Positions 42,100 through 43,478 of a stretch of DNA of 64,000 bases are shown here, in pieces. How positions within the stretch are numbered: position 1 is the stretch's first letter; every line of letters starts with the position of its first letter. The notes beneath the pieces are model-generated. The model ran no database searches, had not been told where the DNA came from, and saw nothing but the letters and a program-made list of their open reading frames with translations. The position numbers and the translations under genes are program-made. Source of the DNA: Escherichia coli (GTDB taxonomy: Bacteria; Pseudomonadota; Gammaproteobacteria; Enterobacterales; Enterobacteriaceae); the NCBI RefSeq assembly GCF_045037415.1, contig NZ_CP173438.1. One strand, given 5' to 3'.

Positions 42100-42341
42100 A
42101 AAAAAGGCGACAGATTACTCTGTCGCCTTTTTTCCTGACTCATAACCCTTAACGGGTCTTACAATCCTTGCAGGCCGCCAACACACCCTGTTTTTCCATT
42201 AGCCGGAACAATCCGTGTTGATTCCATTTCCATTTAATTACGTCTCCGGACGTTTATCTTCCTGACAATCCTCTGTCTTCGCCTCCTGGCGCTCCTGACC
42301 CTCATCCTGAGTCATTGTTCCTGTTAGCGTCCTCGCTCTAT
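42100..42341 (-). ncRNA. csrC: CsrC small RNA (CsrA-sequestering)
   Basis: Minus-strand sequence atagagcgaggacgctaacaggaacaatgactcaggatgagggtcaggagcgccaggagg... with many GGA motifs and terminal hairpin aaaaaaggcgacagagtaatctgtcgcctttttt; matches CsrC as recalled. Confidence 0.85.
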
Positions 42342-42611
42342 GGGTGCTACTTTACGCCTTTGCTTTAAATAAACAATCAACCGCCATCAGTATTTGCACA
42401 TTTTCAGAGTTTTATATAAAAGCAATTCACTGATTTATATAGCTTATTTGACATACGTCGCAGAATTTTCTCTGCTATTTCGCATAAAGACTATCGGCAA
42501 TGTCTCACAAAGCATATGGCTTTTACTTACAACGCTCACGCCGAAAAATCCGCCTTTTATTATGGTTCAGGTATAATCGCCGCAAAGCTTTGACTGATGG
42601 AGACGACCGCT

Positions 42612-43244
42612 TTGACTAATTTGAATTATCAACAGACGCATTTTGTGATGAGTGCGCCTGATATTCGCCACCTACCTTCCGATACCGGAATTGAAGTGGC
42701 TTTTGCAGGCCGTTCCAACGCAGGTAAATCCAGCGCGCTGAACACGCTGACTAACCAGAAAAGCCTGGCTCGTACCTCAAAAACCCCAGGGCGCACCCAG
42801 CTTATCAACCTGTTTGAAGTGGCTGACGGCAAGCGTCTGGTTGACTTGCCTGGGTACGGTTATGCGGAAGTCCCGGAAGAGATGAAGCGCAAATGGCAGC
42901 GCGCGCTCGGCGAGTACCTCGAAAAACGTCAGAGCCTGCAAGGTCTGGTGGTGCTAATGGATATTCGCCATCCGCTGAAAGATTTGGATCAGCAGATGAT
43001 TGAGTGGGCGGTAGACAGCAATATCGCCGTGCTGGTACTGCTGACCAAAGCGGACAAACTGGCAAGCGGCGCACGTAAAGCGCAATTGAATATGGTGCGT
43101 GAAGCGGTGCTGGCGTTTAACGGTGATGTGCAGGTTGAAACGTTTTCTTCGCTGAAGAAACAAGGCGTGGACAAGCTGCGGCAGAAACTGGATACCTGGT
43201 TTAGCGAGATGCAGCCTGTAGAAGAAACGCAGGACGGCGAATAA
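42612..43244 (+). CDS. engB: Ribosome biogenesis GTPase EngB/YihA (TTG start at 42612 with ggag SD; in-frame ATG at 42597 is the alternative)
   Basis: G1 GRSNAGKSS; 210-aa model. Confidence 0.92.
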
Positions 43245-43265
43245 TTTTCTTGCCTTAATGCTTGT

Positions 43266-43345
43266 GCCGGATGTGGCGTATCCGGCCCGTAAATTCAATA
43301 GATTACAATTCTACCGTTGGCCTGATAAACAGGGCGCATCAGGCA
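43266..43345. repeat. REP palindromes
   Basis: gccggatgtggcgtatccggc... and ggcctgataaacagggcgcatcaggc. Confidence 0.7.
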
Positions 43346-43369
43346 TTACGGATCTTTTCTTTCGCCCAA

Positions 43370-43478
43370 TAAAAAACGCCCCAGTCATTACTGACTGGGG
43401 CGGCTAAAATATTCAGCCAAATCCGATTACGTGAAGTAAAAGGTCTGAAAGATAGAACATCTTACCTCTGTACCCTAC
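43370..43478 (-). ncRNA. spf: Spot 42 small RNA
   Basis: Minus strand reads gtagggtacagaggtaagatgttctatctttcagaccttttacttcacgtaatcggatttggctgaatattttagccgccccagtcagtaatgactggggcgtttttt (109 nt), matching Spot 42 as recalled. Confidence 0.92.

Follow-up and report, generated by a model that had tools for sequence, protein, structure and literature searches.

The csrC and spf RNA genes of an Escherichia coli strain lie in their usual places and are nearly unchanged from K-12

The small RNAs CsrC and Spot 42 have been textbook regulators for decades. Both genes (csrC and spf) are already known and annotated in Escherichia coli K-12, and there is nothing new in the genes themselves. The annotated order in K-12 MG1655 is polA, spf (with spfP inside it), yihA, csrC, yihI and hemN. 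In K-12 CsrC is known to bind and antagonise the protein CsrA, and it is turned over by CsrD and RNase E (PMC5027483). Upstream of E. coli csrC lies an inverted repeat, TGTGAGACATTGCCGATA, which was footprinted with DNase I as a UvrY site by Zere et al. (PMC4682653). This site falls inside the region of ChIP-exo crosslinking that extends from −223 to −143 of csrC (PMC4682653), and a half-site with the sequence TGTAAG has been described for csrC of both E. coli and Salmonella (PMC4682653). Spot 42 contains the short reading frame spfP. The SpfP peptide is made and binds CRP (Aoyama et al., 2022; PMC8916003), which gives Spot 42 a dual function.

The window (the whole 64-kb stretch of E. coli DNA that was analysed) has the gene order of K-12 in the reverse orientation, reading yihI, csrC, engB/yihA, spf and polA. 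The csrC gene is located between yihA/engB and yihI, as is the enterobacterial norm, and spf is located between polA and yihA/engB. These are the flanking genes that an initial annotation of this DNA had given for the two RNAs. The gene for the Der GTPase activator YihI (41521–42030, minus strand) is assigned by RefSeq annotation and by a match to the Pfam family YihI (PF04220, E = 3.5e-55), and lies 65 nt 3′ of csrC on the same strand. The GTPase gene engB/yihA (42612–43244, plus strand), assigned by RefSeq annotation and by the Pfam family MMR_HSR1 (E = 8.4e-19), is divergent from csrC and convergent with spf. Upstream of spf and on the same strand is polA (43626–46412, minus strand), an ORF of 928 aa; genomes that are identical to the window in this region have it as DNA polymerase I. 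Several complete E. coli chromosomes, among them those of SK1144 and SA186, match the 2.2 kb around csrC and spf with 100% identity, and of 5426 complete E. coli genomes 5425 contain the region. We conclude, with a probability of about 0.97, that csrC and spf are here orthodox E. coli RNA genes in their usual places, nearly unchanged relative to K-12.

Some features of the spacers can be noted in passing. Only 65 nt (42031–42095) separate the csrC terminator from yihI, which has the same orientation. The search for promoters gave no promoter-like site in this interval, and read-through of the terminator could add to the transcription of yihI. Between the stop codon of engB and the terminator of spf there are two REP-like palindromes. 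The first (43266–43286) has the form GCCGGAT-N7-ATCCGGC, and the second (43320–43344) the form GCCTGAT-N11-ATCAGGC, with a loop that differs from that of K-12 by 2 nt.

The RNAs were identified by a covariance scan with Rfam 15, carried out on positions 38000–48000 and later on the whole window. The initial annotation had placed CsrC and Spot 42 here on the minus strand and had named the Rfam models as the test of that placement; both models match over their full length and far above their thresholds. The CsrC model (RF00084) matches 42088–42341 (minus strand) with 276.7 bits against a gathering score of 61 (E = 4.5e-88), and spans model positions 1–255 of 255 without truncation. By mapping the K-12 RefSeq annotation (b4457), csrC is 246 nt in length, extending from +1 at 42341 to 42096 on the minus strand. 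The initial annotation had ended it at 42100, which is 4 nt short and falls in the U-tail of the terminator.

The alignment to K-12 that had been called for gave 98.8% identity for csrC and 100% for spf, together with the conserved gene order. Within csrC 243 of 246 positions are identical in the pairwise alignment, the substitutions being C to U at nt 85, C to U at nt 109 and A to U at nt 143. These three positions are variable in the Rfam consensus as well. All 14 of the GGA cores are untouched; two of the substitutions lie directly 5′ of a core, changing ACGGA to AUGGA and AAGGA to AUGGA. All but two of the 5426 complete E. coli genomes (5424) have the gene, in every case with at least 95% identity. 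A query with csrC only across the E. coli genomes gave 5488 places in 5424 genomes, so that about 64 genomes have a second csrC-like match. Two of the csrC matches in this genome collection are on records labelled plasmid.

The csrC sequence folds with a z-score of −6.1 relative to dinucleotide shuffles, and its fold agrees with the shape known from the literature. The RNA ends in an intrinsic terminator (42097–42136, minus strand) with a GC core of GGCGACAGA-GUAA-UCUGUCGCC that has an A-run on one side and a U-run on the other. A terminator scan gives this hairpin 18 base pairs, of which seven are G-C, and a loop of 4 nt; the Rfam consensus structure ends in a matching hairpin.

CsrC contains 14 GGA motifs in its 246 nt, compared with a background of 3.2 per 246 nt in the window (counted per strand), and is the GGA-densest stretch of that length on either strand of the whole 64 kb. 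Dinucleotide shuffles of csrC contain 8.8 ± 2.0 GGA motifs, and 14 are reached in 23 of 2000 shuffles. When the motifs are placed by eye on the Rfam structure line, hairpin loops contain about six of them and single-stranded linkers about five. The placing of GGA in loops and single-stranded linkers is the arrangement preferred by CsrA (PMC5027483).

By the established mechanism BarA–UvrY would activate csrC at its own promoter, acting through the upstream inverted repeat, and transcription would end at the intrinsic terminator ∼245 nt downstream. The GGA motifs of the RNA would then bind CsrA dimers, with the result that CsrA is kept off its mRNA targets, and the level of CsrC would also be set by decay via CsrD and RNase E. 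With 98.8% identity to K-12, the allele in the window would probably retain both the binding of CsrA and the decay by CsrD and RNase E. The two RNAs had been described initially as trans-acting sRNAs. Both do act in trans; CsrC does so as a sponge for the CsrA protein and not by base pairing.

A scan with a strict sigma-70 consensus over 41900–43700 found no promoter at either csrC or spf. The promoters of both genes have weak −35 elements, as expected for genes under the control of an activator or a repressor. At csrC the hexamer TAAAGT (42349–42354, minus strand), located 8–13 nt upstream of +1 and identical in K-12, is by its position the putative −10 element. The UvrY/SirA-binding inverted repeat TGTGAGACATTGCCGATA is found at 42492–42509 (minus strand), −151 to −168 from +1, and is an exact match to the published sequence. 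The repeat is only weakly symmetric; it was missed by an inverted-repeat finder applied to the csrC–engB spacer, and was found only by an exact search using the published sequence. A TGTAAG half-site (42526–42531, minus strand) lies 16 bp upstream of the repeat. Relative to K-12 the csrC promoter has one substitution, from G to A at approximately −29.

The Spot 42 model (RF00021) matches 43370–43488 (minus strand) with 122.8 bits against a gathering score of 80 (E = 5.7e-25), covering model positions 1–115 of 115. The classical RNA of 109 nt encoded by spf (b3864 in K-12) occupies 43370–43478 on the minus strand, exactly the interval initially given for it, while the 111 nt of the K-12 RefSeq annotation map to 43368–43478. 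All 109 of the 109 nt are identical to K-12 in the pairwise alignment, and 5424 of the 5426 complete E. coli genomes carry the RNA, always with at least 99% identity. The minimum-free-energy fold has an energy of −40.6 kcal/mol (z = −5.1 relative to dinucleotide shuffles). It comprises a long 5′ hairpin, a small second hairpin and a terminator hairpin with its U-tail, leaving nt 49–60 unpaired, and has the published shape of the RNA.

The intrinsic terminator of spf (43371–43402, minus strand) is CGCCCCAGUCA-GUAA-UGACUGGGGCG followed by UUUUUU, and corresponds to a hairpin of the Rfam consensus. In the terminator scan its stem extends from 43402 to 43377 (CGCCCCAGTCAGTAATGACTGGGGCG and then TTTTTT), with 11 base pairs of which eight are G-C. 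Rho-independent terminators, on which the initial identification of the two RNAs had partly relied, are therefore present at both, the other being the stem from 42136 to 42097 at the end of csrC.

Upstream of spf, a second hexamer TAAAGT (43486–43491, minus strand) stands 8–13 nt before +1 and is identical in K-12; its position makes it the putative −10 element. A candidate CRP site, TGTGATGGCTATTAGA, is located at 43555–43570 (minus strand), −92 to −77 from the spf +1, and has two mismatches to TGTGA-N6-TCACA. No other match with three mismatches or fewer occurs within 147 nt upstream of the gene.

Spot 42 is expected to function as an Hfq-dependent base-pairing RNA that is repressed by cAMP–CRP. 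Its unpaired regions would pair with the translation starts of mRNAs for the use of non-preferred carbon sources, for which galK is the classic example, and the pairing would reinforce catabolite repression. The calculated duplex of Spot 42 with galK has an energy of −54.7 kcal/mol, compared with −33.4 ± 4.6 kcal/mol for dinucleotide shuffles of Spot 42, none of 1000 being as good; the energy ignores intramolecular structure, so that only the contrast with the shuffles is meaningful. The target in this calculation was the start region of K-12 galK from −60 to +30, and the pairing covers −56 to +29. The RNA has a U-tail and U-rich stretches, and its identity to K-12 suggests that it also binds Hfq here.

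The same transcript also encodes the 15-aa SpfP, the peptide that binds CRP. The spfP frame is intact and has 15 codons (43413–43460, minus strand; nt 19–66 of the RNA), reads MFYLSDLLLHVIGFG up to its stop codon and is preceded by a GAGG Shine–Dalgarno sequence. The K-12 annotation has the same frame under b4837, with the product name 'dual-function small protein SpfP'. For both csrC and spf, we infer expression and regulatory outcomes in this strain from the literature and from near-identity to the characterised allele.

The Rfam scan gave a number of further matches in the window. Three are to naRNA4, the REP/BIME-derived 'nucleoid-associated RNA', with 69–77 bits (39763–39834, 5658–5728 and 5750–5820, all on the minus strand); that at 39763–39834 sits between yshB/glnG and hemN. 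Scores above threshold were also given by the sRNA ES222 at 35160–35267 (minus strand) with 132 bits, by STnc370 at 33202–33270 (minus strand) with 54.6 bits, barely over its cutoff of 54, and by a selenocysteine insertion element (SECIS_3) at 11055–11113 (plus strand) with 84 bits. A complete rRNA operon occupies 52570–57587 (minus strand), at the rrnA locus between mobB and hemG. Its parts, all on the minus strand, are 16S rRNA (56046–57587), tRNA-Glu(UUC) (55885–55960), 23S rRNA (52788–55691) and 5S rRNA (52570–52685), and StyR-44 matches, above threshold, the rRNA spacer beside the 23S gene (55699–55807, minus strand). The spacer contains tRNA-Glu in the window and in SK1144, whereas in K-12 it contains tRNA-Ile and tRNA-Ala; the spacer type at this locus therefore varies between lineages.

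Within the two genes and their promoters the differences from K-12 are few, comprising the three substitutions within csrC and one substitution in each promoter, that of spf being G to A at approximately −40. They could be taken to mean that csrC and spf are intact but silent in this lineage, or altered in function, as a result of the promoter changes or of the csrC substitutions. Against this, none of the changes touches a −10 hexamer, a terminator, the UvrY repeat or any of the GGA cores, and the substituted csrC positions are ones at which the Rfam consensus itself varies. Moreover, the exact allele is common to many strains at 100% identity, indicating normal lineage polymorphism. Because the functional elements that were checked are intact and the allele is common to many strains, a silent or altered pair of genes is very unlikely.

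It might also be supposed that CsrC is a dual-function RNA like Spot 42, by translation of an ORF of 25 codons (42238–42315, minus strand; MTQDEGQERQEAKTEDCQEDKRPET). This ORF starts 3 nt past a GGA motif that is a possible ribosome-binding site. Its AUG, however, is not conserved, the sequence being AAUGAC here and AacGaC in the Rfam consensus, and for that reason we attach very little weight to its translation. No family match was found for the ORF in Pfam, and the RefSeq pipeline shows only a broken frame there.

The ORFs of at least 20 aa that overlap csrC or spf are all of 49 aa or fewer, and the three that were checked (48, 49 and 24 aa) have no Pfam match. The initial view that only spurious short ORFs are found here thus holds for these frames and fails for spfP, which is real; spfP was absent from the ORF track because, with 15 codons, it was too short.

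It had also been claimed that the two RNAs are invisible to ORF-based annotation, and the RefSeq record of SK1144 bears this out, with no ncRNA at either place and a pseudogene over csrC. At spf the only feature in that record is the 15-codon CDS; in the other E. coli records sampled, spf carries either no feature or a small CDS of the spfP type. Over csrC the SK1144 record has a PGAP pseudogene CDS, equivalent to 42149–42315 of the window (minus strand), described as 'hypothetical protein; frameshifted; internal stop'. Nothing other than a 'hypothetical protein' is annotated at csrC in the E. coli genomes sampled (12 of 12 records, taken across the ranking). These labels, and short sense-strand ORFs of 20–28 aa inside csrC, would be in keeping with a degraded protein-coding gene in place of an RNA gene, a reading of almost negligible probability that was rejected, since the frame is broken on PGAP's own description, Pfam gave no match for the sense-strand ORF that was checked and the CsrC covariance model covers the whole interval end to end at 276.7 bits. 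The curated annotation of K-12 has the ncRNA csrC at this place, and the repeated architecture of GGA in loops accounts for the conservation of the sequence without coding. An RNA gene thus seems to be systematically mis-annotated here as a 'hypothetical protein'.

Taking csrC and spf as orthodox RNA genes, the practical value of the result is in the quality of annotation. The RefSeq record of SK1144 has neither as an RNA gene, and a scan that recognises RNA would avoid reading the region as a decayed gene or as empty intergenic DNA. Calls of 'non-coding' can also hide very small genes that are real, for example the 15-aa spfP.

The closest described systems are the same genes in K-12, together with the paralogue CsrB. 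CsrB belongs to the same Rfam clan as CsrC and is likewise a CsrA sponge, sharing with it multiple GGA sites that titrate CsrA, activation by UvrY and decay through CsrD and RNase E (PMC4682653, PMC5027483). It differs in being longer, with 369 nt and GGA sites numbered up to 22 (PMC5027483), in lying at another locus and in having a near-perfect UvrY palindrome. The top Rfam match at 42088–42341 is CsrC and not CsrB.

K-12 csrC (b4457; RF00084, in the Csr/Rsm clan CL00106) has the same yihA–yihI locus, length, +1, terminator and UvrY inverted repeat as the gene in the window. The latter is distinguished by the three internal substitutions and the single promoter substitution near −29, all of which are common alleles among E. 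coli genomes. K-12 spf (b3864; RF00021), with spfP (b4837), has the same RNA, spfP reading frame, terminator, −10 hexamer and position between polA and yihA. Here the differences lie outside the RNA only, and comprise the substitution near −40, an insertion of 1 nt just downstream of polA and the 2-nt change in the downstream REP-like palindrome.
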